Below, one piece after another: positions 1 to 64,000 of a stretch of 64,000 nucleotides of DNA. The notes under the pieces were generated by a model that was not told where the DNA came from, searched no databases, and was given only the letters and a program-made list of their open reading frames with translations. Position 1 is the first letter of the stretch, and each line of letters opens with the position of its first letter. The position numbers and the translations under genes are program-made. The DNA is from Eledone cirrhosa (taxonomy: Eukaryota): the NCBI GenBank assembly GCA_964016885.1, contig OZ024757.1, positions 43,028,001-43,092,000 of the forward strand, written 5' to 3'.

Positions 1-3000
1 CCGTAGTGCGCATGCGCCAAAGCCACCGAACCGTACTGCGCATGTGCCAAGGCCACCGGAACGTAGTGCGCATGCGGCAAGGTCGCCGGACCGTAGTGCG
101 CATGCGCCAAGACCGCCGGACCGTAGTGCGCGTGCGCCAAGGCCGCCAGACCGTAGTGCGCATAAGCACTACTGTCCGACGGCCTTGGGGCATGCGCAGT
201 AAGATCCGGCGGCCTTGGAGCATGCGCACTACGGTCTGGCGGCTTTGGCACGTGCGCACTACGGTCCGACGGCCTTGGGGCATGCGCAGTACGATCCGGC
301 GGTCTTGGTGCATGCGCAGTACCGTCCGGTGGCCTTGGCGCATGCGCACTACGGTGCAGCTGCTTTGGCGCATGCGCAGTACGGTTCGGCGGCCTTAGCG
401 CATGCGCACTACAGTCCGGCGGGCTTGGCACATGCGCAGTATGGTCCGGCGACCTTGACGCAGGCGCACTACGGTTCGGCAGCTCTGGCGCATGCGCACT
501 GCGGTCCGGCGGCCTTGGCGCATGCGCAGTACGGTCCGGCGGCCTTAGCGCATGCGCAGTTCGGTACTGGGACCTTGACGCATGCGCAGTACAGTCAGGC
601 GGCCTTGGCGCATGCGCACTACGGTCCGGCGGCCTTGGCGCATGCGCAGTATGGTCCGACGGCCTTGGCGCATGTGCACTATGTATCGGCGGCCTTGGCG
701 CATGCGCACTACGGTTCGGCGGCTTTGGCGCATGCGCACTACGGTCCGGCGGCCTTGGCGCATGCGCACTACGGTCCGGCAGCCTTGGCGCATGCGCACT
801 ACGGTCATGTGGCCTTGGCGCATGCGCACTACGGTACTGCGGCCTTGTCGCATGCGCACTACGGTCCGGTGGCTTTGGCGCATGCGCACTACGGTCCGGC
901 GTCCTTGGCGCATGTGCAGTACGGTCCGGTGGCCTTGGCGCATGCGCACTACGGTCCAGCTGCTTTGGCGCATGCGCAGTACGGTTCAGCGGCCTTAGCG
1001 CATGCGCACTACGGTCCGGCGGGCTTGGCGCATGCGCAGTATGGTCCGGCGACCTTGACGCATGCGCACTACGGTTCGGCGGCTCTGGCGCATGCGCACT
1101 GCGGTCCGGCGGCCTTGGCGCGTGCGCACTACGCTCCGGTGGCCTTGGCGCATGCGCAGTACGCTCCAGTGGCCTTGGCGCATGCGCAGTAAGGTCCGGC
1201 GGCTTTGGCGCATGCGCACTATGGTCTGTCAGTCTTGGCGCATGCGCACTACGGTCCGGCTGCCTTCGTGGATGCGCACTACGTTCCGGCGGCCTTGCCG
1301 CATGCGCACTACGGTCCGGTGGCTTTGGCGCATGCGCACTACGGTCTGGCAGACTTGGCGCATGCGCACTACGGTCCGGCGGTCTTGGCGCATGCGCACT
1401 ACGGTCCGGCGACCTTGCCGCATGCGCACTACGTTCCGGTGGCCTTGGCACATGCGCAGTACGGTCCGGTGGCTTTAGCGCATGCGCACTACGGTCTGGC
1501 AGACTTGGCGCATGCGCACTACGGTCCGATGGCCTTGGCGCGTGCGCACTACGGTCCGGTGGCCTTGGCACATGCGCAGTACGGTCCGGTGGCTTTGGCG
1601 CATGCGCACTACGGTCTGGCAGACTTGGCGCATGCGCACTACGGTCCGATGGCCTTGGCGCATGCGCACTACGTCCTGCTGGCCTTGGCGCCTGCACAAT
1701 ACAGTCCAGTGGCCTTGGCGCATGCGCAGTAAGGCCCGGCGGCCTTAGCGCATGCGCAGTAAGGTCCGGCGGCCATGGCGCATGCGCACTAAGGGCCAGC
1801 GGTCTTTGCGCATGCGCACAATGGTACGGCAACCTTGGCGCATGCGCACTACGTTCCGGTGGCCTTGACGCATGCGCAGTACTGTCCAGTGGCCTTGGCG
1901 CATGCGCAGTAAGGTACGGCGGCCTTAGCGCATGCGCAGTACGTTCCGGCGGCCTTGGCGCATGCGCACTAAGGGCCATCGTTCTTTACGCACCGTACTG
2001 CGCATGCGCCAAGGCCGCCGGACCGTAGTGCGCATGCGCCAAGGCCGCCTGACTGTACTGCGCATGCATCAAAGTCCCAGTACCGTACTGCGCATGCACC
2101 AAGACCGCCGGACCGTAGTGCGCATGCGCCAGAGCCGCCGAACCGTAGTGCGCATGCGCCAAGGCCGCCGGACCATACTGCGCATGCGCCAAGGCTGCCG
2201 GACCGTAGTGGGCATGCGCCAAAGACGCGGGCCCGTAGTGCGCATGCGCCAAGGCCACCTGACTGTACTGCGCATGCGTCAAGGTCGCAGTACTTAACTG
2301 CGCATGCGCTAAGGCCGCCGGATCGTAATGCGCATGCGCCAAGGCCGCCTGACTGTACTGCGCATGCGTCAAGGTCGCAGTACCGAACTGCGCATGCGTT
2401 AAGGCCGCCGGACCGTACTGCGCATGCGCCAAGGCCGCCGGACCGTAGTGCGCATGCGCCAAGGCCGCCTGACTGTACTGCGCATGCGTCAAGGTCCCAG
2501 TACCGAACTGCGCATGCGCTAAGGCCGCCGGACCGTACTGCGCATGCGCCAAGGCCGCCGGACCGCAGTGCGCATGCGCCAGAGCCGCCGAACCGTAGTG
2601 CGCATGCGTCAAGGTCGCCGGACCATACTGCGCATGCGCCAAGCCCGCCGGACCGTAGTGCGCATGGGCCAAAGCCGCCTGACCGTACTGCGCATGCGCC
2701 AAGTCCGCAGTACCGTACTGCGCATGCGACAAGGCCGCAGTACCGTAGTGCGCATGCGCCAAGGCCATATGACCGTAGTGCGCATGCGCCAAGGCCGCCG
2801 GATCGTAGTGCGCATGCGCCAAAGCCGCCGAACCGTAGTGCGCATGCGCCAAGGCCGCCGATACATAGTGCACATGCGCCAAGGCCGTCGGACCATACTG
2901 CGCATGCGCCAAGGCCGCCGGACCGTAGTGCGCATGTGCCAAGGCCGCCTGACTGTACTGCGCATGCGTCAAGGTCGCAGTACCGAACTGCGCATGCGCT

Positions 3001-5400
3001 AAGGCCGCCGGACCGTACTGCGCATGCGCCAAGGCCGCCGGACCGCAGTGCGCATGCGCCAGAGCCGCCGAACCGTAGTGCGCCTGCGTCAAGGTCGCCG
3101 GACCATACTGCGCATGTGCCAAGCCCGCCGGACCGTAGTGCGCATGCGCTAAGGCCGCCGAACCGTACTGCGCATGCGCCAAAGCAGCTGCACCGTAGTG
3201 CGCATGCGCCAAGGCCACCGGACGGTACTGCGCATGCACCAAGACCGCCGGATCGTACTGCGCATGCCCCAAGGCCGTCGGACCGTAGTGCGCATGTGCC
3301 AAAGCCGCCAGACCGTAGTGCGCATGCTCCAAGGCCGCCGGATCTTACTGCGCATGCCCCAAGGCCGTCGGATGGTAGTGCGCTTGTGCCAAGGCCGCCA
3401 GACCGTAGTGCGCATGCGCCAAGGCCGCCGAACCGTACTGCGCATGCGCCAAGGCCGCCGGATCTTTGTGCGCATGCGGTTCGGTGGCCTTGGCGCATGC
3501 GCACTACTGTCCGGCGACCTTCCCGCATGCGCACTACGTTCCGGCGGCCTTGGCGCATGCGCACTACGTTCCGGTGGCCTTGGCGCATGCGCAGTACTGT
3601 CCAGTGGCCTTGGCGCATGCGCAGTAAGGTCCGGCAGCCTTAGCGCATGCGCACTACGGTCCAGTGGCCTTATCGCATGCGCAGTAAGGTCCGGCGGCCA
3701 TGGCGCATGCGCACTAAGGGCCAGCGGTCTTTGCGCATGCGCACAACGGTCCGGCGGCCTTGGCGCCTGCGCACTACGGTCCGGCGGCTTTGGTGCATGC
3801 GCACTACGTTCCGGTGGCCTTGGCGCATGCGCAGTACTGTCCAGTGGCCTTGGCGCATGCGCAGTAAGGTCCGGCAGCCTTAGCGCATGCGCAGTACGTT
3901 CCGGCGGCCTTGGCGCATGCGCACTAAGGGCCATCGTTCTTTGCGCATGCGCACAACGGTCCGGCGGCCTTGGTGCATGCGCACTACGGTCCGGCGGCCT
4001 TGGCGCATGCGCACTACGGTCCGGCGGCTTTGGTGCATGCGCACTACGGTCTAGCAGCATTGGGGCATGCGCACTACAGCCCGGCGGCCTTGGCGCATGC
4101 GCAGTACGGCCCGGCGACCTTGGCGCATGCGCACTACGGTCTGGCGGCCTTGGCGCACGCGCACTACGGTCCGGCGGTCTTGGCGCATGCGCACTACGGT
4201 CCGGCGACCTTGCCGCATGCGCACTACGTTCCGGTGGCCTTGGCACATGCGCAGTACGGTCCGGTGGCTTTGGCGCATGCGCACTACGGTCTGGCAGACT
4301 TGGCGCATGCGCACTACGGTCCAATGGCCTTGGCGCATGCGCACTACGGTCCGGCGGCCTTGGCGCATGCGCACTACGTTCCGGTGGCCTTTGCGCATGC
4401 GCAGTACGGTCCAGTGGCCTTGGCGCATGCGCAGTAAGGTCCGGCGGCTTTGGCGCATGCGCACTATGGTCTGTCAGTCTTGGCGCATGCGCACTACGGT
4501 CCGGCGGCCTTGGCGCAGGCGCACTACGTTCCGGCGGCCTTGGCGCATGCGCACTACGTTCCGGTGGCCTTTGCGCATGCGCAGTACGGTCCAGCGGCCT
4601 TGGCGCATGCGCACAACGGTACGGCGGCCTTGGCGCATGCGCACTACGTTCCGGTGGCCTTGACGCATGCGCAGTACTGTCCAGTGGCCTTGGGGCATGC
4701 GCACTACAGTCCAGTGGCCTTGGCGCATGCGCAGTAAGGTCCGGCGGCCATGGCGCATGCGCACTAAGGGCCAGCGGTCTTTGCGCATGCGCACAACGGT
4801 CCGGCGGCCTTGGCGCATGCGCACGACGTTCTGGTGGCCTTGACGCATGCGCAGTACTGTCCAGTGGCCTTGGCGCATGCGCAGTAAGGTCCGGCGGCCT
4901 TAGCGCATGCGCAGTACGTTCCGGCGGCCTTGGCGCATGCGCACTAAGGGCCATCGTTCTTTGCGCATGCGCACAACGGTCCGGCGGCCTTGGTGCATGC
5001 GCACTACGGTCCGGCAGCCTTGGCGCATGCGCACTACGGTCCGGTGGATTTGGTGCATGCGCACTACGGTCTAGCAGCATTGGGGCATGCGCACTACAGC
5101 CCAGCTGCCTTGGCGCATGCGCAGTACGGCCCGGCGACCTTGGCGCATGCGCACTACGGTCTGGCGGCCTTGGCGCACGCGCACTACGGTCCGGCGGTCT
5201 TGGCGCATGCGCACTACGGTCCGGCGACCTTGCCGCATGCGCACTACGTTCCGGTGGCCTTGGCACATGCGCAGTACGGTCCGGTGGCTTTGGCGCATGC
5301 GCACTACGGTCTGGCAGACTTGGCGCATGCGCACTACGGTCCGATGGCCTTGGCGCATGCGCACTACGTCCTGGTGGCCTTGGCGCATGCGCAGTACAGT

Positions 5401-5633
5401 CCATATTTAGCCATTTTGAGTTATTTTAGTAATTTATGATGCAGTTTAACCATTTTAGAGCCATTTATAGTCATTTTAGACGTTTCAGTCGTGTTAGAGT
5501 CATTCTAGTCAATTATGATACGGTTTTAGCATTTTATTGTCACTTTAGTCATTTATTATGCCGTCTTAGCCATTTTGTTGTAATTTCAGACATACATGAT
5601 GACATTTCGGCCATGTTAGTCCTTTTTGATGAC
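5401..5633 (+). repeat. AT-rich spacer, 233-bp (medium) form, at a forward-to-reverse switch
   Basis: ccatatttagccattttgag...cctttttgatgac; built of degenerate TAGYCATTTT ~10-mers; near-identical copies elsewhere. Confidence 0.95.
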
Positions 5634-7448
5634 GTGCCCATGCGCCAAGACCGCCAGACCTTACTGCGCACGCGCCGAGACGGCGTGATCGTAGTGCGCA
5701 TGCGCCAAAGCCGCCTAACCGTAGTGCGCATGCGCCAAGGCCGCCGATACATAGTGCACATGCGCCAAGGCCGTCGGACTATACTGCGCATGTGCCAAGG
5801 GCGCCGGACCGTTGTGCGCATGCGCCAAGGCCGCTGGACCGTACTGCGCATGCGCAAAGGCCACCGGAACGTAGTGCGCATGCGCCAAGGCCGCCGGACC
5901 GTAGTGCGCATGCGCCAAGACTGACAGACCATAGTGCGCATGCGCCAAAGCCGCCGGACCTTACTGCGCATGCGCCAAGGCCACTGGAGCGTACTGCGCA
6001 TGCGCCAAGGCCACCGGAACGTAGTGCGCATGCGCCAAGGCCGCCGGACCGTAGTGCGCATGCGCCAAGGCTGCCAGACCGTAGTGCGCATGCGCCAAAG
6101 CCGCCGGAACGTAGTGCGCATGCGGGAAGGTCGCCGGACCGTAGTGCGCATGCGCCAAGGCCGCCGAACCGCATGCGCACAAAGGTCCGGCGGCCTTGGC
6201 GCATGCGCAGTACGGTTCGGCGGCCTTGGCGCATGCGCACTACGGTCTGGCGGCCTTGGCACATGCGCACTACGGTCCGACGGCCTTGGGGCATGCGCAG
6301 TAAGATCCGGCGGTCTTGGAGCATGCGCACTACGGTCTGGCGGCCTTGGCGCATGCGCACTACGGTCTGGCAGCCTTGGCGCATGCGCACTACGGTCCGG
6401 CGCCCTTGGCGCATGCGCACTACTTTCCGGTGGCCTTGGCGCATGCGCAGTACGCTCCAGTGGCCTTGGCGCATGCGCAGTAAGGTCCGGCGGCTTTGGC
6501 GCATGCGCACTATGGTCTGTCAGTCTTGGCGCATGCGCACTACGGTCCGGCGGCCTTGGCGCATGCGCACTACGTTCCGGCGGCCTTGGCGCATGCGCAC
6601 TACGTTCCGGTGGCCTTTGCGCATGCGCAGTACGGTCCAGCGGCCTTGGCGCATGCGCACAACGGTACGGCGGCCTTGGCGCATGCGCACTACGGCCCGG
6701 TGGCCTTGACGCATGCGCAGTACTGTCCAGTGGCCTTGGGGCATGCGCACTACAGTCCAGTGGCCTTGGCGCATGCGCAGTAAGGTCCGGCGGCCATGGC
6801 GCATGCGCACTAAGGGCCAGCGGTCTTTGCGCATGCGCACAACGGTACGGCGGCCTTGGCGCATGCGCACTACGTTCTGGTGGCCTTGACGCATGCGCAG
6901 TACTGTCCAGTGGCCTTGGCGCATGCGCAGTAAGGTCCGGCGGCCTTAGCGCATGCGCAGTACGTTCCGGCGGCCTTGGCGCATGCTCACTAAGATGGCC
7001 ATCGTTCTTTGCGCATGCGCACAACGGTCCGGCGGCCTTGGTGCATGCGCACTACGGTCCGGCAGCCTTGGCGCATGCGCACTACGGTCCGGTGGCTTTG
7101 GTGCATGCGCACTACGGTCTAGCAGCATTGGGGCATGCGCACTACAGCCCGGCGGCCTTGGCGCATGCGCAGTACGGCCCGGCGACCTTGGCTCATGCGC
7201 ACTACGGTCTGGCGGCCTTGGCGCACGCGCACTACGGTCCGGCGGTCTTGGCGCATGCGCACTACGGTCCGGCGACCTTGCCGCATGCGCACTACGTTCC
7301 GGTGGCCTTGGCACATGCGCAGTACGGTTCGGTGGCTTTGGCGCATGCGCACTACGGTCTGGCAGACTTGGCGCATGCGCACTACGGTCCGATGGCCTTG
7401 GCGCATGCGCACTACGTCCTGGTGGACTTGGCGCATGCGCAGTACAGT

Positions 7449-7504
7449 CCATATTTAGCCATTTTGAGTTATTTTAGTAATTTATGATGCAGTTTAACCA
7501 TTTT
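7449..7504 (+). repeat. AT-rich spacer, 56-bp (short) form
   Basis: First 56 bp of the medium spacer, joined directly to caaggccgcc of the reverse array. Confidence 0.95.
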
Positions 7505-8867
7505 CAAGGCCGCCGGACCGTACTGCGCATGCGCCAAGGCCACCTGACTGTACTGCGCATGCGTCAAGGTCGCAGTACCGAACTGCGCATGCGCTAAGGC
7601 CGCCGGACCGTACTGCGCATGCGCCAAGGCCGCCTGACTGTACTGCGCATGCGTCAAGGTCGCAGTACCGAACTACGCATGCGTTAAGGCCGCCGGACCG
7701 TACTGCGCATGTGCCAAGGCCGCCGGACCGTAGTGCGCATGCGCCAAAGCCGCCGAACCGTACTGCGCATGCGCCAAGGCCGCCGGACCGTAGTGCGCAT
7801 GCGCCAAGACCGACTGACTGTACTGCGCATGCGTCAAGGTCCCAGTACCGAACTGCGCATGCGCTAAGGCCGCCGGACCGTACTGCGCATGCGCCAAGGC
7901 CGCCGGACCGCAGTGCGCATGCGCCAGAGCCGCCGAACCGTAGTGCGCCTGCGTCAAGGTCGCCGGACCATACTGCGCATGCGCCAAGCCCTCCGGAACG
8001 TAGTGCGCATGCGGGAAGGTCGCCGGACCGTAGTGCGCATGCGCCAAGGCCGCCGAACCGCATGCGCACAAAGGTCCGGCAGCCTTGGCGCATGCGCAGT
8101 ACGGTTCGGCGGCCTTGGCGCATGCGCACTACGGTCTGGCGGCCTTGGCACATGCGCACTACGGTCCGACGGCCTTGGGGCATGCGCAGTAAGATCCGGC
8201 GGTCTTGGAGCATGCGCACTACTGTCCGACGGCCTTGGGGCATGCGCAGTACGATCCGGCGGTCTTGGATCATGCGCAGTACCGTCCCGTGGCCTTGGCG
8301 CATGCGCACTACGGTCCAGCTGCTTTGGCGCATGCGCAGTACGGTTCGGCGGCCTTAGCGCATGCGCACTACGGTCCGGAGGGCTTGGCGCATGCGCAGT
8401 ATGGTCCGGCGACCTTGACGCAGGCGCACTACGGTTCGGCGGCTCTGGCGCATGCGCACTGCGGTCCGGCGGCCTTGGCGCATGTGCAGTACGGTCCGGC
8501 GGCCTTAGCGCATGCGCAGTTCGGTACTGGGACCTTGACGCATGCGCAGTACAGTCAGTCGGTCTTGGCGCATGCGCACTATGGTCCGGCGGCCTTGGCG
8601 CATGCGCAGTACGGTTCGGCGGCTTTGGCGCATGCGCACTACGGTCCGGCGGCCTTGGCACATGCGCAGTACGGTCCGGCGGCCTTAACGCATGCGTAGT
8701 TCGGTACTGCGACCTTGACGCATGCGCAGTACAGTCAGGCGGCCTTGGCGCATGCGCAGTACGGTCCGGCGGCCTTAGCGCATGCGCAGTTCGGTACTGC
8801 GACCTTGACGCATGCGCAGTACAGTCAGGTGGCCTTGGCGCATGCGCAGTACGGTCCGGCGGCCTTG

Positions 8868-8923
8868 AAAATGGTTAAACTGCATCATAAATTACTAAAA
8901 TAACTCAAAATGGCTAAATATGG
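8868..8923 (-). repeat. AT-rich spacer, 56-bp form, inverted
   Basis: Reverse complement of 7449-7504. Confidence 0.95.
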
Positions 8924-11900
8924 ACTGTACTGCGCATGCGCCAAGTCCACCAGGACGTAGTGCGCATGCGCCAAGGCCATCGGACCGTAGTGCGCATGCG
9001 CCAAGTCTGCCAGACCGTAGTGCGCATGCGCCAAAGCCACCGGACCGTACTGCGCATGTGCCAAGGCCACCGGAACGTAGTGCGCATGCGGCAAGGTCGC
9101 CGGACCGTAGTGCGCATGCGCCAAGACCGCCGGACCGTAGTGCGCGTGCGCCAAGGCCGCCAGACCGTAGTGCGCATGCGCCAAGGTCGCCGGGCCGTAC
9201 TGCGCATGCGCCAAGGCCGCCGGGCTGTAGTGCGCATGCCCCAATGCTGCTAGACCGTAGTGCGCATGCACCAAAGCCACCGGACCGTAGTGCGCATGCG
9301 CCAAGGCTGCCGGACCGTAGTGCGCATGCACCAAGGCCGCCGGACCGTTGTGCGCATGCGCAAAGAACGATGGCCATCTTAGTGAGCATGCGCCAAGGCC
9401 GCCGGAACGTACTGCGCATGCGCTAAGGCCGCCGGACCTTACTGCGCATGCGCCAAGGCCACTGGACAGTACTGCGCATGCGTCAAGGCCACCAGAACGT
9501 AGTGCGCATGCGCCAAGGCCGCCGTACCGTTGTGCGCATGCGCAAATACCGCTGGCCCTTAGTGCGCATGCGCCATGGCCGCCGGACCTTACTGCGCATG
9601 CGCCAAGGCCACTGGACTGTAGTGCGCATGCCCCAAGGCCACTGGACAGTACTGCGCATGCGTCAAGGCCACCGGGCCGTAGTGCCCATGCGCCAAGGCC
9701 GCCGTACCGTTGTGCGCATGCGCCAAGGCCGCTGGACCGTACTGCGCATGCGCAAAGGCCACCGGAACGTAGTGCGCATGCGCCAAGGCCGCCGGAACGT
9801 AGTGCGCATGCGCCAAGGCCGCCGGACCGTAGTGCGCATGCGCCAAGACTGACAGACCATAGTGCGCATGCGCCAAAGCCGCCAGACCTTACTGCGCATG
9901 CGCCAAGGCCACTGGAGCGTACTGCGCATGCGCCAAGGCCACCGGAAAGTAGTGCGCATGCGCCAAGGGCGCCGGACCGTAGTGCGCATGCGCCAAGGCT
10001 GCCAGACCGTAGTGCGCATGCGCCAAGGCCGCCAGACCGTAGTGCGCATGCTCCAAGACCGCCGGATCTTACTGCGCATGCCCCAAGGCCGTCGGACCGT
10101 AGTGCGCATGTGCCAAGGCCGCCAGACCGTAGTGCGCATGCGCCAAGGCCGCCGAACCGTACTGCGCATGCGCCAAGGCCGCCGGACCTTTGTGCGCATG
10201 CGGTTCGGCGGCCTTGGCGCATGCGCACTACGGTCCGGCGACCTTCCCGCATGCGCACTACGTTCCGGCGGCTTTGGCGCATGCGCACTACGGTCTGGCA
10301 GCCTTGGCGCATGCGCACTACGGTCCGGCGGCCTTGGCGCATGCGCACTACGTTCCGGTGGCCTTGGCGCATGCGCAGTACGCTCCAGTGACCTTACTGC
10401 GCATGCGCCAAGGCCACTGGACAGTACTGCGCATGCGTCAAGGCCACCGGAACGTAGTGCGCATGCGCCAAGGTTGCCGTACCATTGTGCGCATGCGCAA
10501 AGACCGCTGGCCCTTAGTGCGCATGCGCCATGGCCGCCGGACCTTACTGCGCATGCGCTAAGGCCGCCGGGCCTTACTGCGCATGCGCCAAGGCCACTGG
10601 ACTGTATTGTGCAGGCGCCAAGGCCAGCAGGACGTAGTGCGCATGCGCCAAGGCCATCGGACCGTAGTGCGCATGCGCCAAGTCTGCCAGACCGTAGTGC
10701 GCATGCGCCAAAGCCACCGGACCGTACTGCGCATGTGCCAAGGCCACCGGAACGTAGTGCGCATGCGGCAAGGTCGCCGGACCGTAGTGCGCATGCGCCA
10801 AGACCGCCGGACCGTGGTGCGCGTGCGCCAAGGCCGCCAGACCGTAGTGCGCATGCGCCAAGGTCGCCGGGCCGTACTGCGCATGCGCCAAGGCCGCCGG
10901 GCTGTAGTGCGCATGCCCCAATGCTGCTAGACCGTAGTGCGCATGCACCAAAGCCGCCGGACCGTAGTGCGCATGCGCCAAGGCTGCCGGACCGTAGTGC
11001 GCATGCACCAAGGCCGCCGGACCGTTGTGCGCATGCGCAAAGAACGATGGCCCTTAGTGCGCATGCGCCAAGGCCGCCGGAACGTACTGCGCATGCGCTA
11101 AGGCCGCCGGACCTTACTGCGCATGCGCCAAGGCCACTGGACAGTACTGCGCATGCGTCAAGGCCACCGGAACGTAGTGCGCATGCGCCAAGGCCGCCGT
11201 ACCGTTGTGCGCATGCGCAAAGACCGCTGGCCCTTAGTGCGCATGCGCCATGGCCGCCGGACCTTACTGCGCATGCGCTAAGGCCGCCGGACCTTACTGC
11301 GCATGCGCCAAGGCCACTGGACTGTAGTGCGCATGCCCCACGGCCACTGGACAGTACTGCGCATGCGTCAAGGCCACCGGAACGTAGTGCGCATGCGCCA
11401 AGGCCGCCGTACCTTTGTGCGCATGCGCCAAGGCCGCTGGACCGTACTGCGCATGCGCCAAGGCCGCCGGAACGTAGTGCGCATGCGCCAAGGCCGCCGG
11501 ACCGTAGTGCGCATGCGCCAAGGCTGCCAGACCGTAGTGCGCATGCGCCAAAGCCGCCGGACCGTACTGCGCATGTGCCAAGGCCACCGGAACGTAGTGC
11601 GCATGCGGGAAGGTCGCCGGACCGTAGTGCGCATGCGCCAAGGCCGCCGAACCGCATGCGCACAAAGGTCCGGCAGCCTTGGCGCATGCGCAGTACGGTT
11701 CGGCGGCCTTGGCACATGCGCACTACGGTCCGACGGCCTTGGGGCATGCGCAGTAAGATCCGGCGGTCTTGGAGCATGCGCACTACGGTCTGGCGGCCTT
11801 GGCACATGCGCACTACTGTCCGACGGCCTTGGGGCATGCGCAGTACGATCCGGCGGTCTTGGATCATGCGCAGTACCGTCCCGTGGCCTTGGCGCATGCG

Positions 11901-12461
11901 CACTACGGTCCAGCTGCTTTGGCGCATGCGCAGTACGGTTCGGCGGCCTTAGCGCATGCGCACTACGGTCCGGAGGGCTTGGCGCATGCGCAGTATGGTC
12001 CGGCGACCTTGACGCAGGCGCACTACGGTTCGGCGGCTCTGGCGCATGCGCACTGCGGTCCGGCGGCCTTGGCGCATGTGCAGTACGGTCCGGCGGCCTT
12101 AGCGCATGCGCAGTTCGGTACTGGGACCTTGACGCATGCGCAGTACAGTCAGTCGGTCTTGGCGCATGCGCACTATGGTCCGGCGGCCTTGGCGCATGCG
12201 CAGTACGGTTCGGCGGCTTTGGCGCATGCGCACTACGGTCCGGCGGCCTTGGCACATGCGCAGTACGGTCCGGCGGCCTTAACGCATGCGTAGTTCGGTA
12301 CTGCGACCTTGACGCATGCGCAGTACAGTCAGGCGGCCTTGGCGCATGCGCAGTACGGTCCGGCGGCCTTAGCGCATGCGCAGTTCGGTACTGCGACCTT
12401 GACGCATGCGCAGTACAGTCAGGTGGCCTTGGCGCATGCGCAGTACGGTCCGGCGGCCTTG

Positions 12462-12517
12462 AAAATGGTTAAACTGCATCATAAATTACTAAAATAACTC
12501 AAAATGGCTAAATATGG
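12462..12517 (-). repeat. AT-rich spacer, 56-bp form, inverted
   Basis: Same sequence as 8868-8923, offset 3,594. Confidence 0.95.
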
Positions 12518-15500
12518 ACTGTACTGCGCATGCGCCAAGTCCACCAGGACGTAGTGCGCATGCGCCAAGGCCATCGGACCGTAGTGCGCATGCGCCAAGT
12601 CTGCCAGACCGTAGTGCGCATGCGCCAAAGCCACCGGACCGTACTGCGCATGTGCCAAGGCCACCGGAACGTAGTGCGCATGCGGCAAGGTCGCCGGACC
12701 GTAGTGCGCATGCGCCAAGACCGCCGGACCGTAGTGCGCGTGCGCCAAGGCCGCCAGACCGTAGTGCGCATGCGCCAAGGTCGCCGGGCCGTACTGCGCA
12801 TGCGCCAAGGCCGCCGGGCTGTAGTGCGCATGCCCCAATGCTGCTAGACCGTAGTGCGCATGCACCAAAGCCACCGGACCGTAGTGCGCATGCGCCAAGG
12901 CTGCCGGACCGTAGTGCGCATGCACCAAGGCCGCCGGACCGTTGTGCGCATGCGCAAAGAACGATGGCCATCTTAGTGAGCATGCGCCAAGGCCGCCGGA
13001 ACGTACTGCGCATGCGCTAAGGCCGCCGGACCTTACTGCGCATGCGCCAAGGCCACTGGACAGTACTGCGCATGCGTCAAGGCCACCAGAACGTAGTGCG
13101 CATGCGCCAAGGCCGCCGTACCGTTGTGCGCATGCGCAAATACCGCTGGCCCTTAGTGCGCATGCGCCATGGCCGCCGGACCTTACTGCGCATGCGCCAA
13201 GGCCACTGGACTGTAGTGCGCATGCCCCAAGGCCACTGGACAGTACTGCGCATGCGTCAAGGCCACCGGGCCGTAGTGCCCATGCGCCAAGGCCGCCGTA
13301 CCGTTGTGCGCATGCGCCAAGGCCGCTGGACCGTACTGCGCATGCGCAAAGGCCACCGGAACGTAGTGCGCATGCGCCAAGGCCGCCGGAACGTAGTGCG
13401 CATGCGCCAAGGCCGCCGGACCGTAGTGCGCATGCGCCAAGACTGACAGACCATAGTGCGCATGCGCCAAAGCCGCCAGACCTTACTGCGCATGCGCCAA
13501 GGCCACTGGAGCGTACTGCGCATGCGCCAAGGCCACCGGAAAGTAGTGCGCATGCGCCAAGGGCGCCGGACCGTAGTGCGCATGCGCCAAGGCTGCCAGA
13601 CCGTAGTGCGCATGCGCCAAGGCCGCCAGACCGTAGTGCGCATGCTCCAAGACCGCCGGATCTTACTGCGCATGCCCCAAGGCCGTCGGACCGTAGTGCG
13701 CATGTGCCAAGGCCGCCAGACCGTAGTGCGCATGCGCCAAGGCCGCCGAACCGTACTGCGCATGCGCCAAGGCCGCCGGACCTTTGTGCGCATGCGGTTC
13801 GGCGGCCTTGGCGCATGCGCACTACGGTCCGGCGACCTTCCCGCATGCGCACTACGTTCCGGCGGCTTTGGCGCATGCGCACTACGGTCTGGCAGCCTTG
13901 GCGCATGCGCACTACGGTCCGGCGGCCTTGGCGCATGCGCACTACGTTCCGGTGGCCTTGGCGCATGCGCAGTACGCTCCAGTGGCCTTGGCGCATGCGC
14001 AGTAAGGTCCGGCGGCTTTGGCGCATGCGCACTATGGTCTGTCAGTCTTGGCGCATGCGCACTACGGTCCGGCGGCCTTGGCGCATGCGCACTACGTTCC
14101 GGCGGCCTTGGCGCATGCGCACTACGTTCCGGTGGCCTTTGCGCATGCGCAGTACGGTCCAGCGGCCTTGGCGCATGCGCACAACGGTACGGCGGCCTTG
14201 GCGCATGCGCACTACGTTCCGGTGGCCTTGACGCATGCGCAGTACTGTCCAGTGGCCTTGGGGCATGCGCACTACAGTCCGGTGGCCTTGGCGCATGCGC
14301 AGTAAGGTCCGGCGGCCATGGCGCATGCGCACTAAGGGCCAGCGGTCTTTGCGCATGCGCACAACGGTACGGCGGCCTTGGCGCATGCGCACTACGTTCT
14401 GGTGGCCTTGACGCATGCGCAGTACTGTCCAGTGGCCTTGGCGCATGCGCAGTAAGGTCCGGCGGCCTTAGCGCATGCGCAGTACGTTCCGGCGGCCTTG
14501 GCGCATGCGCACTACGGTTCGGCGGCTCTGGCGCATGCGCACTACGGTCCGGCGGTCTTGGTGCATGCGCAGTACGGTACTGGGACCTTGATGCATGCGC
14601 AGTACAGTCAGGCGGCCTTGGCGCATGCGCACTACGGTCCGGCGGCCTTGGCGCATGCGCAGTACGGTCCGGCGGCCTTAGCGCATGCGCAGTTCGGTAC
14701 TGCGACCTTGACGCATGCGCAGTACAGTCAGGCGGCCTTGGCACATGCGCACTACGGTCCGGCGGCCTTGGCGCATGCGCAGTATGGTCCGACGGCCTTG
14801 GCGCATGTGCACTATGTATCGGCGGCCTTGGCGCATGCGCACTACGGTTCGGCGGCTTTGGCGCATGCGCACTACGGTCATATGGCCTTGGCGCATGCGC
14901 ACTACGGTACTGCGGCCTTGTCGCATGCGCAGTACGGTACTGCGGACTTGGCGCATGCGCAGTACGGTCAGGCGGCTTTGGCCCATGCGCACTACGGTCC
15001 GGCGGGCTTGGCGCATGCGCAGTATGGTCCGTCGACCTTGACGCATGCGCACTACGGTTCGGCGGCTCTGGCGCATGCGCACTGCGGTCCGGCGGCCTTG
15101 GCGCATGCGCAGTACGGTCCGGCGGCCTTAGCGCATGCGCAGTTCGGTACTGGGACCTTGACGCATGCGCAGTACAGTCAGGCGGCCTTGGCGCATGCGC
15201 ACTACGGTCCGGCGGCCTTGGCGCATGCGCAGTACGGTCCGGCGGCCTTAACGCATGCGCAGTTCGGTACTGCGACCTTGACGCATGCGCAGTACAGTCA
15301 GGCGGCCTTGGCGCATGCGCATTACGATCCGGCGGCCTTAGCGCATGCGCAGTTCAGTACTGCGACCTTGACGCATGCGCAGTACAGTCAGGTGGCCTTG
15401 GCGCATGCGCACTACGGGCCCGCGTCTTTGGCGCATGCGCACTACGGCCCGGCGGCCTTGGCGCATGCGCAGTATGGTCCGGCGGCCTTGGCGCATGCGC

Positions 15501-17147
15501 ACTACGGTTCGGCGGCTCTGGCGCATGCGCACTACGGTCCGGCGGTCTTGGTGCATGCGCAGTACGGTACTGGGACTTTGATGCATGCGCAGTACAGTCA
15601 GGCGGCCTTGGCGCATGCGCACTACGGTCCGGCGGCCTTGGCGCATGCGCAGTACGGTGCGCAAAGAACGATGGCCCTTAGTGCGCATGCGCCAAGGCCG
15701 CCGGAACGTACTGCGCATGCGCTAAGGCCGCCGGACCTTACTGCGCATGCGCCAAGGCCACTGGACAGTACTGCGCATGCGTCAAGGCCACCGGAACGTA
15801 GTGCGCATGCGCCAAGGTTGCCGTACCATTGTGCGCATGCGCAAAGACCGCTGGCCCTTAGTGCGCATGCGCCATGGCCGACGGACCTTAGTGCGCATGC
15901 GCTAAGGCCGCCGGGCCTTACTGCGCATGCGCCAAGGCCACTGGACTGTATTGCGCAGGCGCCAAGGCCAGCAGGACGTAGTGCGCATGCGCCAAGGCCA
16001 TCGGACCGTAGTGCGCATGCGCCAAGTCTGCCAGACCGTAGTGCGCATGCGCCAAAGCCACCGGACCGTACTGCGCATGTGCCAAGGCCACCGGAAAGTA
16101 GTGCGCATGCGGCAAGGTCGCCGGACCGTAGTGCGCATGCGCCAAGACCGCCGGACCGTAGTGCGCGTGCGCCAAGGCCGCCAGACCGTAGTGCGCATGC
16201 GCCAAGGTCGCTCGGCCGTACTGCGCATGCGCCAAGGCCGCCGGGCTGTAGTGCGCATGCCCCAATGCTGCTAGACCGTAGTGCGCATGCACCAAAGCCG
16301 CCGGACCGTAGTGCGCATGTGCCAAGGCCGCCTGACTGTACTGCGCATGCGTCAAGGTCGCAGTACCGAACTGCGCATGCGCTAAGGCCGCCGGACCGTA
16401 GTGCGCATGCGCCAAGGCCGCCTGACTGTACTGCGCATGCATCAAGGTCCCAGTACCGTACTGCGCATGCACCAAGACCGCCGGACCGTAGTGCGCATGC
16501 GCCAGAGCCGCCGAACCGTAGTGCGCACAACGCATGCGCACAACGGTACGGCGGCCTTGGCGCATGCGCACTACGTTCTGGTGGCCTTGACGCATGCGCA
16601 GTACTGTCCAGTGGCCTTGGCGCATGCGCAGTAAGGTCCGGCGGCCTTAGCGCATGCGCAGTACGTTCCGGCGGCCTTGGCGCATGCGCACTAAGGGCCA
16701 TCGTTCTTTGCGCATGCGCACAACGGTCCGGCGGCCTTGGTGCATGCGCACTACGGTCCGGCAGCCTTGGCGCATGCGCACTACGGTCCGGTGGATTTGG
16801 TGCATGCGCACTACGGTCTAGCAGCATTGGGGCATGCGCACTACAGCCCAGCTGCCTTGGCGCATGCGCAGTACGGCCCGGCGACCTTGGCGCATGCGCA
16901 CTACGGTCTGGCGGCCTTGGCGCACGCGCACTACGGTCCGGCGGTCTTGGCGCATGCGCACTACGGTCCGGCGACCTTGACGCATGCGCACTACGTTCCG
17001 GTGGCCTTGGCACATGCGCAGTACGGTCCGGTGGCTTTGGCGCATGCGCACTACGGTCTGGCAGACTTGGCGCATGCGCACTACGGTCCGATGGCCTTGG
17101 CGCATGCGCACTACGTCCTGGTGGCCTTGGCGCATGCGCAGTACAGT

Positions 17148-17380
17148 CCATATTTAGCCATTTTGAGTTATTTTAGTAATTTATGATGCAGTTTAACCAT
17201 TTTAGAGCCATTTATAGTCATTTTAGACGTTTCAGTCGTGTTAGAGTCATTCTAGTCAATTATGATACGGTTTTAGCATTTTATTGTCACTTTAGTCATT
17301 TATTATGCCGTCTTAGCCATTTTGTTGTAATTTCAGACATACATGATGACATTTCGGCCATGCTAGTCCTTTTTGATGAC
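17148..17380 (+). repeat. AT-rich spacer, 233-bp form
   Basis: Matches 5401-5633 (catgctag vs catgttag SNP). Confidence 0.95.
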
Positions 17381-20300: not shown

Positions 20301-20501
20301 GCGCATGCGCAGTACGGCCCGGCGGCCTTGGCGCATGTGCACTACGGTCTGGCGGCCTTGGCGCATGCGCACTACGGTCCGGCGGCCTTGGCGCATGCGC
20401 ACTACGGTCCGGCGGCGTTGGCGCATGCGCACTACGGTTCGGAGGCCTTGGCGCATGCGCACGACGGTCCGAAGTCCTTGACGCATGTGCAGTACGGTCC
20501 G

Positions 20502-20768
20502 GATGACTTTTTAGCCATTTTAAGCCTTTATGTTGCCATATTTAGCCATTTTGAGTTATTTTAGAAATTTATGATGCAGTTTAACCATTTTAGAGCCATT
20601 TATAGTCATTTTAGACGTTTCAGTCGTGTTAGAGTCATTCTAGTCAATTATGATACGGTTTTAGCATTTTATTGTCACTTTAGGCATTTATTATGCCGTC
20701 TTAGCCATTTTGTTGTAATTTCAGACATACATGATGACATTTCGGCCATGTTAGTCCTTTTTGATGAC
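20502..20768 (+). repeat. AT-rich spacer, 267-bp (longest) form
   Basis: Medium spacer plus the 5' extension gatgactttttagccattttaagcctttatgttg. Confidence 0.95.
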
Positions 20769-32903: not shown

Positions 32904-32959
32904 CCATATTTAGCCATTTTGAGTTATTTTAGTAATTTATGATGCAGTTTAACCATTTT
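32904..32959 (+). repeat. AT-rich spacer, 56-bp form
   Basis: Matches 7449-7504. Confidence 0.95.
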
Positions 32960-38515: not shown

Positions 38516-38748
38516 CCATATTTAGCCATTTTGAGTTATTTTAGTAATTTATGATGCAGTTTAACCATTTTAGAGCCATTTATAGTCATTTTAGACGTTT
38601 CAGTCGTGTTAGAGTCATTCTAGTCAATTATGATACGGTTTTAGCATTTTATTGTCACTTTAGTCATTTATTATGCCGTCTTAGCCATTTTGTTGTAATT
38701 TCAGACATACATGATGACATTTCGGCCATGTTAGTCCTTTTTGATGAC
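38516..38748 (+). repeat. AT-rich spacer, 233-bp form
   Basis: Matches 5401-5633. Confidence 0.95.
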
Positions 38749-40563: not shown

Positions 40564-40619
40564 CCATATTTAGCCATTTTGAGTTATTTTAGTAATTTAT
40601 GATGCAGTTTAACCATTTT
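40564..40619 (+). repeat. AT-rich spacer, 56-bp form
   Basis: Exactly 7,660 bp after 32904. Confidence 0.95.
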
Positions 40620-46175: not shown

Positions 46176-46408
46176 CCATATTTAGCCATTTTGAGTTATT
46201 TTAGTAATTTATGATGCAGTTTAACCATTTTAGAGCCATTTATAGTCATTTTAGACGTTTCAGTCGTGTTAGAGTCATTCTAGTCAATTATGATACGGTT
46301 TTAGCATTTTATTGTCACTTTAGTCATTTATTATGCCGTCTTAGCCATTTTGTTGTAATTTCAGACATACATGATGACATTTCGGCCATGTTAGTCCTTT
46401 TTGATGAC
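46176..46408 (+). repeat. AT-rich spacer, 233-bp form
   Basis: Exactly 7,660 bp after 38516. Confidence 0.95.
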
Positions 46409-48223
46409 GTGCCCATGCGCCAAGACCGCCAGACCTTACTGCGCACGCGCCGAGACGGCGTGATCGTAGTGCGCATGCGCCAAAGCCGCCTAACCGTAGT
46501 GCGCATGCGCCAAGGCCGCCGATACATAGTGCACATGCGCCAAGGCCGTCGGACTATACTGCGCATGTGCCAAGGGCGCCGGACCGTTGTGCGCATGCGC
46601 CAAGGCCGCTGGACCGTACTGCGCATGCGCAAAGGCCACCGGAACGTAGTGCGCATGCGCCAAGGCCGCCGGACCGTAGTGCGCATGCGCCAAGACTGAC
46701 AGACCATAGTGCGCATGCGCCAAAGCCGCCGGACCTTACTGCGCATGCGCCAAGGCCACTGGAGCGTACTGCGCATGCGCCAAGGCCACCGGAACGTAGT
46801 GCGCATGCGCCAAGGCCGCCGGACCGTAGTGCGCATGCGCCAAGGCTGCCAGACCGTAGTGCGCATGCGCCAAAGCCGCCGGAACGTAGTGCGCATGCGG
46901 GAAGGTCGCCGGACCGTAGTGCGCATGCGCCAAGGCCGCCGAACCGCATGCGCACAAAGGTCCGGCGGCCTTGGCGCATGCGCAGTACGGTTCGGCGGCC
47001 TTGGCGCATGCGCACTACGGTCTGGCGGCCTTGGCACATGCGCACTACGGTCCGACGGCCTTGGGGCATGCGCAGTAAGATCCGGCGGTCTTGGAGCATG
47101 CGCACTACGGTCTGGCGGCCTTGGCGCATGCGCACTACGGTCTGGCAGCCTTGGCGCATGCGCACTACGGTCCGGCGCCCTTGGCGCATGCGCACTACTT
47201 TCCGGTGGCCTTGGCGCATGCGCAGTACGCTCCAGTGGCCTTGGCGCATGCGCAGTAAGGTCCGGCGGCTTTGGCGCATGCGCACTATGGTCTGTCAGTC
47301 TTGGCGCATGCGCACTACGGTCCGGCGGCCTTGGCGCATGCGCACTACGTTCCGGCGGCCTTGGCGCATGCGCACTACGTTCCGGTGGCCTTTGCGCATG
47401 CGCAGTACGGTCCAGCGGCCTTGGCGCATGCGCACAACGGTACGGCGGCCTTGGCGCATGCGCACTACGGCCCGGTGGCCTTGACGCATGCGCAGTACTG
47501 TCCAGTGGCCTTGGGGCATGCGCACTACAGTCCAGTGGCCTTGGCGCATGCGCAGTAAGGTCCGGCGGCCATGGCGCATGCGCACTAAGGGCCAGCGGTC
47601 TTTGCGCATGCGCACAACGGTACGGCGGCCTTGGCGCATGCGCACTACGTTCTGGTGGCCTTGACGCATGCGCAGTACTGTCCAGTGGCCTTGGCGCATG
47701 CGCAGTAAGGTCCGGCGGCCTTAGCGCATGCGCAGTACGTTCCGGCGGCCTTGGCGCATGCTCACTAAGATGGCCATCGTTCTTTGCGCATGCGCACAAC
47801 GGTCCGGCGGCCTTGGTGCATGCGCACTACGGTCCGGCAGCCTTGGCGCATGCGCACTACGGTCCGGTGGCTTTGCTGCATGCGCACTACGGTCTAGCAG
47901 CATTGGGGCATGCGCACTACAGCCCGGCGGCCTTGGCGCATGCGCAGTACGGCCCGGCGACCTTGGCTCATGCGCACTACGGTCTGGCGGCCTTGGCGCA
48001 CGCGCACTACGGTCCGGCGGTCTTGGCGCATGCGCACTACGGTCCGGCGACCTTGCCGCATGCGCACTACGTTCCGGTGGCCTTGGCACATGCGCAGTAC
48101 GGTTCGGTGGCTTTGGCGCATGCGCACTACGGTCTGGCAGACTTGGCGCATGCGCACTACGGTCCGATGGCCTTGGCGCATGCGCACTACGTCCTGGTGG
48201 ACTTGGCGCATGCGCAGTACAGT

Positions 48224-48279
48224 CCATATTTAGCCATTTTGAGTTATTTTAGTAATTTATGATGCAGTTTAACCATTTT
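48224..48279 (+). repeat. AT-rich spacer, 56-bp form
   Basis: Exactly 7,660 bp after 40564. Confidence 0.95.
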
Positions 48280-49189
48280 CAAGGCCGCCGGACCGTACTG
48301 CGCATGCGCCAAGGCCACCTGACTGTACTGCGCATGCGTCAAGGTCGCAGTACCGAACTGCGCATGCGCTAAGGCCGCCGGACCGTACTGCGCATGCGCC
48401 AAGGCCGCCTGACTGTACTGCGCATGCGTCAAGGTCGCAGTACCGAACTACGCATGCGTTAAGGCCGCCGGACCGTACTGCGCATGTGCCAAGGCCGCCG
48501 GACCGTAGTGCGCATGCGCCAAAGCCGCCGAACCGTACTGCGCATGCGCCAAGGCCGCCGGACCGTAGTGCGCATGCGCCAAGACCGACTGACTGTACTG
48601 CGCATGCGTCAAGGTCCCAGTACCGAACTGCGCATGCGCTAAGGCCGCCGGACCGTACTGCGCATGCGCCAAGGCCGCCGGACCGCAGTGCGCATGCGCC
48701 AGAGCCGCCGAACCGTAGTGCGCCTGCGTCAAGGTCGCCGGACCATACTGCGCATGCGCCAAGCCCTCCGGACCGTAGTGCGCATGCGCTAAGGCCGCCG
48801 AACCGTACTGCGCATGCGCCAAAGCAGCTGGACCGTAGTGCGCATGCGCCAAGGCCACGGGACGGTACTGCGCATGATCCAAGACCGCCGGATCGTACTG
48901 CGCATGCCCCAAGGCCGTCGGACAGTAGTGCGCATGTGCCAAGGCCGCCAGACCGTAGTGCGCATGCTCCAAGACCGCCGGATCTTACTGCGCATGCCCC
49001 AAGGCCGTCGGACCGTAGTGCGCATGTGCCAAGGCCGCCAGACCGTAGTGCGCATGCACCAAGGCCGCCGAACCGTACTGCGCATGCGCCAAGGCTGTCG
49101 GACCTTTGTGCGCATGCGGTTCGGCGGCCTTGGCGCATGCGCACTACGGTCCGGCGACCTTCCCGCATGCGCACTACGTTCCGGTGGCC

Positions 49190-56100: not shown

Positions 56101-56219
56101 CGCACTACTGTCCGGCGACCTTCCCGCATGCGCACTACGTTCCGGCGGCCTTGGCGCATGCGCACTACGTTCCGGCAGCCTTGGCGCATGCGCACTACGG
56201 TCATGTGGCCTTGGCGCAT

Positions 56220-62243: not shown

Positions 62244-64000
62244 ACTGTACTGCGCATGCGCCAAGGCCACCAGGACGTAGTGCGCATGCGCCAAGGCCAT
62301 CGGACCGTAGTGCGCATGCGCCAAGTCTGCCAGACCGTAGTGCGCATGCGCCAAAGCCACCGGACCGTACTGCGCATGTGCCAAGGCCACCGGAACGTAG
62401 TGCGCATGCGGCAAGGTCGCCGGACCGTAGTGCGCATGCGCCAAGACCGCCGGACCGTAGTGCGCGTGCGCCAAGGCCGCCAGACCGTAGTGCGCATGCG
62501 CCAAGGTCGCCGGGCCGTACTGCGCATGCGCCAAGGCCGCCGGGCTGTAGTGCGCATGCCCCAATGCTGCTAGACCGTAGTGCGCATGCACCAAAGCCAC
62601 CGGACCGTAGTGCGCATGCGCCAAGGCTGCCGGACCGTAGTGCGCATGCACCAAGGCCGCCGGACCGTTGTGCGCATGCGCAAAGAACGATGGCCATCTT
62701 AGTGAGCATGCGCCAAGGCCGCCGGAACGTACTGCGCATGCGCTAAGGCCGCCCGACCTTACTGCGCATGCGCCAAGGCCACTGGACAGTACTGCGCATG
62801 CGTCAAGGCCACCAGAACGTAGTGCGCATGCGCCAAGGCCGCCGTACCGTTGTGCGCATGCGCAAAGACAGCTGGCCCTTAGTGCGCATGCGCCATGGCC
62901 GCCGGACCGTAGTGCGCATGCGCCAAGGCTGCCAGACCGTAGTGCGCATGCGCCAAAGCCGCCGGACCGTACTGCGCATGTGCCAAGGCCACCGGAACGT
63001 AGTGCGCATGCGGGAAGGTCGCCGGACCGTAGTGCGCATGCTCCAAGGCCGCCGAACCGCATGCGCACAAAGGTCCGGCGGCCTTGGCGCATGCGCAGTA
63101 CGGTTCGGCGGCCTTGGCGCATGCGCACTACGGTCTGGCGGCCTTGGCACATGCGCACTACGGTCCGACGGCCTTGGGGCATGCGCAGTAAGATCCGGCG
63201 GTCTTGGAGCATGCGCACTACGGTCTGGCAGCCTTGGCGCATGCGCACTACGGTCCGGCGGCCTTGGCGCATGCGCACTACGTTCCGGCGGCCTTGGCGC
63301 ATGCGCACTACGTTCCGGTGGCCTTTGCGCATGCGCAGTACGGTCCAGCGGCCTTGGCGCATGCGCACAACGGTACGGCGGCCTTGGCGCATGCGCACTA
63401 CGTTCCGGTGGCCTTGACGCATGCGCAGTACTGTCCAGTGGCCTTGGGGCATGCGCACTACAGTCCAGTGGCCTTGGCGCATGCGCAGTAAGGTCCGGCG
63501 GCCATGGCGCATGCGCACTAAGGGCCAGCTGTCTTTGCGCATGCGCACAACGGTACGGCGGCCTTGGCGCATGCGCACTACGTTCTGGTGGCCTTGACGC
63601 ATGCGCAGTACTGTCCAGTGGCCTTGGCGCATGCGCAGTAAGGTCGGGCGGCCTTAGCGCATGCGCAGTACGGTCTGGCGGCCTTGGCACATGCGCACTA
63701 CGGTCCGACGGCCTTGGGGCATGCGCAGTACGATCCGGCGGTCTTGGTGCATGCGCAGTACCGTCCGGTGGCCTTGGCGCATGCGCACTACGGTGCAGCT
63801 GCTTTGGGGCATGCGCAGTACGGTTCGGCGGCCTTAGCGCATGCGCACTACGGTCCGGCGGGCTTGGCACATGCGCAGTATGGTCCGGCGACCTTGACGC
63901 AGGCGCACTACGGTTCGGCGGCTCTGGCGCATGCGCACTGCGGTCCGGCGGTCTTGGCGCATACGCAGTACGGTCCGGCGGCCTTAGCGCATGCGCAGTT

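Follow-up and report, generated by a model that had tools for sequence, protein, structure and literature searches.

A 64-kb satellite array with 49 orientation switches probably descends from two founder inversion junctions

The array described here raises the question of which unit is repeated and how a satellite came to switch its orientation so often through so few kinds of junction. In the window (the whole analysed stretch of 64 kb), a two-strand scan with its commonest 30-mer identified 2,016 monomers of 30 bp with a mean identity of 26.9/30. They are split into 50 blocks of alternating orientation, and the resulting 49 switches, one about every 1.3 kb, equal the number given by the first-pass annotation. 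The inner arms (n = 48) are 180-2,940 bp long with a mean of 1,239 bp, and the longest arm within the window comprises 98 monomers. Exact 100-mers occurring more than once make up 95% of the window. The commonest monomer variant carries a core, CATGCGCA, which is kept in 1,812 of the 2,016 monomers, and a palindrome, GCGCATGCGC, which is intact in 1,283. The array is a non-coding satellite. A protein-coding 10-residue repeat was rejected, as the core is conserved at all positions including the would-be third positions; the strand flips further contradict a coding origin, and the stop-poor frames are due to the codons of the monomer itself. Searches of metagenome, viral and prokaryotic genome collections with monomer-pair patterns gave no match and no hint of a microbial origin. 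Two further sequence sets (X5 and X6) contain next to none of the array's words, which is no proof of absence.

One polarity accounts for 25 switches: 21 are copies of a single junction, A (13 on the forward and 8 on the reverse strand), and four are unique. The 24 switches of opposite polarity comprise 18 with an AT-rich spacer, five copies of junction B and one unique junction. The recount of the spacer, A and B classes agrees with the earlier annotation. The gaps that hold the spacers fall into the classes 272 (4x), 235 (5x), 162 (1x) and 76 (8x), with 13 on the forward and 5 on the reverse strand, and a single 262-bp AT sequence, truncated to nested extents, accounts for all 18 spacers. 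The monomers belong to two separate lineages, alpha and beta, which appear as ordered variant strings and meet at A and at the AT spacer. These labels are based on 10 seed blocks picked by us; the alpha and beta seed blocks have only 2 variants in common out of 96 and 72, and monomer pairs are at least 3 bases apart. Alpha lies on one flank of junction A and beta on the other in 21 of 21 copies, and at 47 of the 49 switches overall. The copies of A form 8 diverged haplotypes over both strands with linked flanking variants. Over 91 bp they differ in 0-6 bases from the copy at 18758, and the junctions are not better conserved than the arms. The overlaps at the A, B, 235 and 76 junctions were read directly, since near-copies confounded the computed values. 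Junction B is likely a derivative of the spacer junction by deletion of the spacer. Each of the four unique A-polarity junctions leads from alpha to beta via 6-8 bases common to monomers of opposite orientation, which is consistent with deletions across A. Taken together, B and the less frequent junctions seem to have arisen by deletion. Nearly all switches are copies of A, B or a nested spacer, and the stereotyped junctions proposed earlier are confirmed.

An Rfam scan of 16000-27000 gave 18 matches, mostly hairpins at junction A and all under the gathering score, and a known structured RNA family was therefore rejected for this interval. The hairpin predicted at A is strong (z = -17), as expected since any inverted junction gives one.

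Table 1. Positions of the array, its modules, duplications and junctions in the window.
Feature	Position	Strand	Remarks
Whole array	1..64000		2,016 30-bp monomers in 50 alternating blocks; ~67% GC in arms; continues past both window ends
Commonest monomer variant	742..771	+	56/2,016 monomers; 320 variants overall
Least rearranged module	17149..20536	+	3,388 bp; junction A between a pure beta and a pure alpha arm, preceded by a 235-type spacer
Pure beta arm of this module	17379-18758		46 monomers
Pure alpha arm of this module	18770-20494		57 monomers
Near-perfect 4.4-kb palindrome	5982..10390		2,032-bp arms 99.61% alike; 345-bp centre with junction A
7,660-bp higher-order tandem duplication	31401..48486	+	9,426 bp at 99.83%; six arms per unit; extra copy 1543-8013
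3,594-bp-offset duplication	8211..13984	+	2,180 identical bases
Junction A, type copy	18759..18769	+	two truncated monomers of opposite orientation abut with 2-bp overlap and no foreign DNA
Junction A, other + copies	3466, 10190, 13784, 26589, 29354, 33756, 36581, 41416, 44241, 49106, 52395, 56067	+	
Junction A, - copies	6172, 8061, 11655, 23247, 31627, 39287, 46947, 63060	-	
Full-length AT spacer	20505..20766	+	262 bp, 68% AT; decayed 10/40-bp T-tract repeat, no inverted ends
Further full AT spacers, in gaps	25208-25479 (+), 52855-53126 (-), 58918-59189 (-)		
235-type spacer	5397..5631	+	left-truncated derivative, 3-bp overlap; also 17144, 38512, 46172, 50767
76-type spacer	7445..7520	+	235-type with additional right truncation; also 32900, 40560, 48220, 51599 (+)
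76-type spacer, - copies	8852, 12446, 62172	-	
162-type spacer, single copy	31255..31416	+	right-truncated, running into chimeric arm
Junction B	27860..27883	+	alpha monomer to inverted beta monomer, no spacer, 1-bp overlap
Junction B, other copies	1972, 35087, 42747 (+); 15655 (-)		
Unique A-polarity junction	16519..16543		one of four (153, 16518, 51211, 61019)
Unique alpha-to-alpha switch (10380)	10381..10394		outer edge of 4.4-kb palindrome; 1-bp overlap

The best explanation, with a probability of roughly 0.7, is that the unit is a two-junction module and that the 49 switches go back by copying to two founder inversion junctions, not to 49 separate inversions. The module which the first-pass annotation had named as best preserved (about 17148-20768) indeed contains an unrearranged spacer-beta-A-alpha unit. 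Its beta arm is without about 11 monomers of other beta arms, and the founder was therefore likely longer. The proposal of a repeat unit of about 3.4 kb holds for the composition of alpha arm, AT spacer, beta arm and A but not for the period: the spacer-to-spacer distance is about 3.4 kb in 1 of 17 cases (range 832-6,063), and the actual long periods are 7,660 bp and 3,594 bp. Pieces of the module repeat on both strands, direct and inverted, at 97-100% identity. Judged from its sequence, the 4.4-kb palindrome appears to be a recent inverted duplication.

Switches could also be mis-joins in a collapsed repeat. The duplication at the 3,594-bp offset, 100% identical over 2,180 bp, is either very recent or an assembly duplication, and the read support concerns the spacer joins. 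For this comparison the spacer region (20435-20830) was searched in 4 of 9 listed runs; the matching pieces each cover part of it, and X1 and X2 possibly represent the sample that was assembled. In X7, a different sample with the same species label, raw reads cover both the arm-to-spacer and the spacer-to-arm join, with the 235-type junction in 27 reads (9 starts) and the 76-type junction in 139 reads (7 starts). The spacer-to-beta arm join is also spanned, over 247 bp with 2 differences, by a contig (X4) carrying a second organism label. The presence of the spacer joins in other samples, the diverged and linked haplotypes of A on both strands and the private substitutions in the larger duplications make an assembly artefact very improbable. 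Loose ends of AT letters in X7 were considered as flanks and rejected as library ends (agreement 0.35-0.72, one adapter-like). Spacer depth, a rough guide, is about 4 in organism B, similar to its AT relatives, and 184-725 for single spacer contigs in the source organism; the ratios hint at tens to about 100 spacers, which is not a copy number. In organism B the interval 20505-20546 is uncovered, which at so low a depth does not imply absence.

Tandem amplification and rearrangement between inverted monomers, as suggested before, are supported by the two lineages with their two common variants and by arms in which the lineages are combined. In 20 of the 50 arms the lineage changes between alpha and beta in exact 30-bp register. 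From their sequence, we interpret these chimeric arms as the trace of inverted recombination. Out of 18 candidate exchange points, 8 distinct ones were retained as matching the change of label (one borderline, and leaving out blocks 1/44, 4/30/36, 18, 19 and 40), and each has 5-27 bp of perfect shared sequence. The core is included in 4 of these 8 intervals, with no clear clustering on it. Spacer(+)/A(-)/spacer(+) arrangements with two chimeric arms are also found (e.g., 5397-7520). The array would thus document naturally occurring recombination between inverted repeats that are 82% alike, through perfect matches of 5-27 bp.

Descent from two founder junctions may have proceeded in four steps. 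The starting point would have been a 30-bp minisatellite that was already old and diverged (about 82% identity among monomers, random-pair background 82.5%). Break repair would have created two junctions in it, and at one of them a piece of an AT-rich 10/40-bp repeat would have been captured or come to lie next to the join. Recent amplification in the lineage of the source organism would have followed through tandem duplication of multi-kb segments (3.6 and 7.66 kb). Since an inverted partner lies within 1-2 kb of each monomer, crossover or template switching between the two would reverse A with respect to the spacer and produce chimeric arms as well as inverted duplications, the 4.4-kb palindrome among them. 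Finally, microhomology-type deletions (0-8 bp) would trim the founders to the 235, 162 and 76 spacers, B and the unique junctions. Inverted-repeat arrays in yeast amplify with frequent inversions and deletions, forming multimers of an inverted-repeat unit as here (PMC6007334), and foldback priming yields inverted duplications, palindromic with a short centre like the one in this array (PMC10622511). Those events were engineered or induced, whereas this array is natural and its junctions are common to several samples.

The strict polarity rule of the first-pass annotation holds in the window. It is no evidence by itself, since a junction keeps its polarity when reverse-complemented and descent alone preserved polarity in 100% of the switches in toy simulations. 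The simulation parameters are arbitrary. A first setting with one span distribution gave a mean of about 14 switches per 2,016 monomers (5-95% about 1-60), so that the observed 49 lie in its upper tail. With 200 runs per setting, a second, neutral set with large duplications and small deletions reached at least 49 switches in 11-69% of them; it overshoots the chimeric fraction (0.66-0.78 vs about 0.4 observed), and its longest arm stayed at or below the observed 98 monomers in 3-49% of runs. Stereotyped junctions and strict polarity are reproduced by two founder junctions with ordinary duplication, inversion and deletion. In the founder-junction model, polarity and switch density would not require selection.

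Foldback elements such as FB and TU consist of inverted tandem-subrepeat arms around a non-coding middle. A foldback or MITE origin was one option of the first-pass annotation; the module would then be a non-autonomous transposon with internally repetitive arms around the AT spacer, tandemised at A. Arms of 30-bp monomers do converge on a short non-coding spacer, as in Tetris/TIR-220 (PMC4079207) and Xmix/Xstir (reviewed in PMC12628747, PMC9659126); these reviews describe satellites derived from transposable elements as common. The short conserved core of each subrepeat would also fit a transposase-binding motif. However, facing arms are only 80.9% alike at spacer/B junctions and 82.7% at A-type junctions, compared with 82.5% for random monomers, and are thus not terminal inverted repeat pairs. 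Within the window, which does not reach the array ends, junction A is a direct join of truncated monomers with neither a flanking terminal domain nor an 8-10-bp target-site duplication. Within the spacer no inverted match of at least 7 bp occurs, and with 262 bp and a longest stop-free frame of 67 codons it is too small for a transposase. Loose ends of the spacer region in X1 and X2 run on into monomer and not into unique DNA in all 12 cases read from a table with 118 further rows. A foldback or MITE-derived satellite is therefore quite unlikely.

In a comparison of organisation as described, the array is closer to the back-to-back satellites of flour beetles than to a foldback transposon. Macro-dyad satellites were described in Tribolium freemani (TfSat01/TfSat03; PMC12581902) and T. 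madens (TmSat1/TmSat2; PMC13081366), and are documented in Tribolium only (PMC13081366). Both systems share inverted subarrays of unequal arm length, few types of conserved inversion segments in many copies (here A 21x, B 5x and the spacer 18x in 50 inversely oriented blocks), a truncated monomer directly abutting an inverted one without foreign DNA (here A and B), and alternate switches occupied by another type of repeat. The first-pass suggestion of an undescribed palindromic class was therefore overstated. Tribolium satellites form megabase (peri)centromeric blocks seen by FISH, with intercalary cassettes of about 4 kb; TfSat01 arrays have medians of 9.3-16.3 kb and mostly two subarrays (PMC12581902). 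In contrast, this array switches every 1.3 kb (several-fold denser), has a 30-bp monomer of 67% GC and spacers of at most 262 bp, and contains two traceable lineages recording inverted recombination. Its lineage likely differs from Tribolium. The literature searched, which did not cover most subscription journals or Dfam/Repbase, neither describes this monomer nor reports a macro-dyad array outside Tribolium. Conserved inversion sites were taken by the Tribolium authors as a sign of structural function, with spread alone as the alternative (PMC12581902, PMC13081366). The present array allows separating the two, as monomer divergence suffices to trace every arm.

A selected architecture, i.e. 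a (peri)centromeric or regulatory array whose dyads and CATGCGCA core are maintained because an NRF1-like or other protein binds or hairpins form, would agree with this structural role and with arms never longer than 98 monomers. The 1,283 intact palindromes match the NRF1 consensus (PMC10810270), and the core overlaps it. At core G/C sites old substitutions are about 7-fold depleted (1.2 events per site vs 8.3 outside), whereas recent single-step changes are not (5.2 vs 5.8; Fisher p = 2e-5). The core/non-core ratio drops steadily as variant abundance rises (4.6/4.1, 1.6/2.75, 0.6/2.1, 0/1.1); this signal is weakened by possible sequencing errors in singletons and by the 2-4-copy class, which is not significant by itself (p = 0.10). 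Conservation of the palindrome is confined to its right part, with positions 17-19 as variable as the rest, whereas an NRF1 homodimer reads both halves. Selection on one monomer among thousands would be weak, the junctions are freely trimmed and deleted, neutral simulations can reach the observed switch density, and the hairpin at A is expected of any inverted junction. We consider a selected architecture rather unlikely. Equally doubtful is the wider reading as the first macro-dyad satellite beyond Tribolium, an extreme short-armed, self-inverting and self-amplifying form with thousands of NRF1-type sites purged of core mutations, which would act as a protein-loaded, hairpin-prone domain (centromere-like or a transcription-factor sink) under selection on motif and switch spacing. 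A metal-response-element reading of the core was rejected, as position 28 varies freely. A purely neutral model does not predict that old substitutions are depleted in the core. Descent from founder junctions does not explain the conserved core, which may reflect past or present protein binding or core-biased conversion, and the depletion is a testable lead for both.

A two-strand scan resolved the window into a single array of a 30-bp monomer, with 2,016 monomers in 50 alternating blocks and hence 49 switches of orientation. One polarity accounts for 25 switches, 21 at a recurrent junction between a monomer and an inverted monomer (junction A) and 4 at unique junctions. The other 24 comprise 18 AT spacers, 5 copies of a second recurrent junction (B) and 1 unique junction; A, B and the spacers each occur on both strands. 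The first-pass annotation had counted the same numbers in each class, and its description of the switches is accurate. In all, 320 monomer variants were found, and each arm is a string of variants when read outward from A. The arms belong to two lineages, alpha and beta; in five seed blocks per lineage, alpha shows 96 variants and beta 72, with only 2 in common. Alpha lies on one side of every A and beta on the other. Alpha is joined to beta at 47 of the 49 switches, the exceptions being the 162-type spacer, named for its gap class, and the switch at 10380.

The best explanation, to which we assign a probability of roughly 70%, is that two founder junctions were amplified and then reshuffled. 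The 18 spacers all represent nested truncations of a single 262-bp sequence (68% AT) that does not resemble the monomer and has a T-tract period of 10/40 bp, now decayed. In the full-length copy (20505-20766) T-tracts recur about every 10 bp, possibly as bent DNA. Junction B joins alpha to inverted beta and lacks the spacer, as would be expected from a deletion across it. The four unique junctions of A polarity connect alpha to beta via 6-8 bases common to monomers of opposite orientation; three of these junctions lie inside the palindromic core of the monomer. None of the four is a mirror-image foldback, and their structure is as deletions across A would leave it. Since the spacers are nested, B is spacer-less and the unique junctions are deletion-like, 48 of the 49 switches can, by their structure, be derived from two junctions; that at 10380 may be a new one.

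A module of ~3.4 kb had been proposed as the repeat unit. One unrearranged unit of this length is present (see table), but no 3.4-kb tandem exists today, and spacer-to-spacer distances range from 832 to 6,063 bp. Because this unit has a truncated spacer and a beta arm ~11 monomers shorter than elsewhere, the founder module was likely longer than 3,388 bp. Inverted copies are numerous among the long repeats of the window. The palindrome likely represents a recent foldback or template-switch duplication; it has persisted within the array. The exactly identical copy is either a very recent duplication or an assembly artefact. A 720-bp (24-monomer) internal duplication in alpha arms (21537-23049 and 56666-58111, ~97.4% identity) is one of the window's oldest segmental copies. 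Out-of-register breaks inside arms are rare (19746-19760, also arms 20767-23246 and 56078-58917), and one interruption is a 15-bp insert behind a truncated monomer. Indels are otherwise nearly absent from arms, and 2-bp and 1-bp shifts recur through copying.

Repeat units and long duplications in the window
Feature	Position	Size or spacing	Identity	Remark
Pure spacer-beta-A-alpha unit	17149-20536	3,388 bp		
Long direct duplication		7,660-bp period	99.83%	
Duplication at 3,594-bp offset	8211-10390 = 11805-13984	2,180 bp	exactly identical	
Near-perfect 4.4-kb palindrome	5982-10390	arms 2,032 bp	99.61%	345-bp centre on an A

A change of lineage with the 30-bp register kept was found in 20 of 50 arms (block 40 borderline). 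Eight distinct exchange points, placed in some of the chimeric arms, were retained of 18 candidates; the sequence shared perfectly at each runs to 5-27 bp. Where A is flanked by two chimeric arms, it is inverted between spacers of unchanged orientation (e.g., 5397-7520), which we read as the signature of inversion between inverted monomers. The in-register chimeric arms and the inverted A thus back the central proposal of the first-pass annotation, recombination between inverted monomers. The strict polarity rule is automatic, because reversal leaves the polarity of a junction unchanged, and the rule was preserved in every switch of toy simulations. The simulated switch density depends on parameters. 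In one setting switches were diluted to ~14 on average; with large duplications and small deletions at least 49 were reached in 11-69% of runs, at a chimeric fraction above that observed. Selection is therefore not required for polarity and switch density, given the automatic polarity and the neutral settings that reach 49 switches, and is also compatible with both.

The array had also been read as foldback-like, which holds for its outline. Tetris transposons, as described in PMC4079207, share this outline, but they also have paired TIRs with an outer domain, and target-site duplications of 8-10 bp, none of which is seen here. The identity between arms that face each other is 80.9-82.7%, the level of random monomers (82.5%), A carries no terminal sequence or target-site duplication, and the spacer has neither inverted ends nor coding room. 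Foldback membership was rejected on these grounds; the monomer itself may still descend remotely from a transposon. Xstir is covered in reviews (PMC12628747, PMC9659126). The nearest described system is the Tribolium macro-dyad satellites, with inverted subarrays and few conserved inversion segments of truncated monomers (PMC12581902; PMC13081366), a likeness in organisation. PMC13081366 states that arrays of this type had been documented in Tribolium only. Compared with Tribolium, the arms here are several-fold shorter, the monomer is short and GC-rich, and a two-lineage history is traceable. Yeast inverted-repeat amplicons (PMC6007334) and foldback-primed inverted duplications (PMC10622511) are mechanistic analogues. 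A literature search found no published description of this repeat. The array is an unusually dense, analysable macro-dyad case with an unexplained motif constraint.

The spacer with short flanks was compared with 4 of 9 sequencing runs. In a second sample with the same species label (X7), raw reads cover both spacer joins and show gap classes 235 and 76; their pile-ups fit restriction cuts, so that X7 depth is not quantitative. In X1/X2, possibly the assembly's own sample, single spacer contigs had depths of 184-725 and diverged AT relatives 5-22. In a second organism (organism B), a 331-bp contig aligned over 247 bp, spanning spacer and beta arm, and showed 2 differences; its depth of ~4 resembles that of the other AT-repeat contigs of organism B. 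The depths in X1/X2 and organism B suggest that amplification was recent in organism A, the organism of X1/X2, and reached tens of spacers or about a hundred, depth being no copy number. These values also suggest that the spacer came from an AT repeat family of low copy number; in both organisms its diverged relatives are found at low depth and run on into more of the same repeat. Summed monomer depth in X1/X2 is ~100x spacer depth, close to the 112 monomers per spacer of the window, suggesting the same build throughout the family.

The core of the monomer (positions 20-27, CATGCGCA) is conserved. Its G/C sites show 1.2 old events per site versus 8.3 elsewhere, about a 7-fold depletion, counted on a minimum-spanning tree of 116 common variants. 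Rare single-step variants are nearly even (5.2 versus 5.8 per site; old/new contrast p = 2e-5), and the commoner the variants, the larger the core deficit. Little change is seen at positions 14-15 and 29-30 as well, and position 28 swaps C/G freely (61/38%). The NRF1 consensus GCGCATGCGC (PMC10810270) overlaps this core and is intact in 1,283 monomers; since its left half is not conserved, NRF1 would explain the core poorly. The constraint may reflect a protein that binds or once bound the core, or core-biased conversion. Among recent changes CpG transitions are favoured 2.4-fold (p = 0.002), which suggests methylation, with platform error as a possible source. C>A changes are also frequent among rare variants (38/145 events). 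The CpG observed/expected ratio of the whole window is 1.16, indicating little long-term CpG loss.
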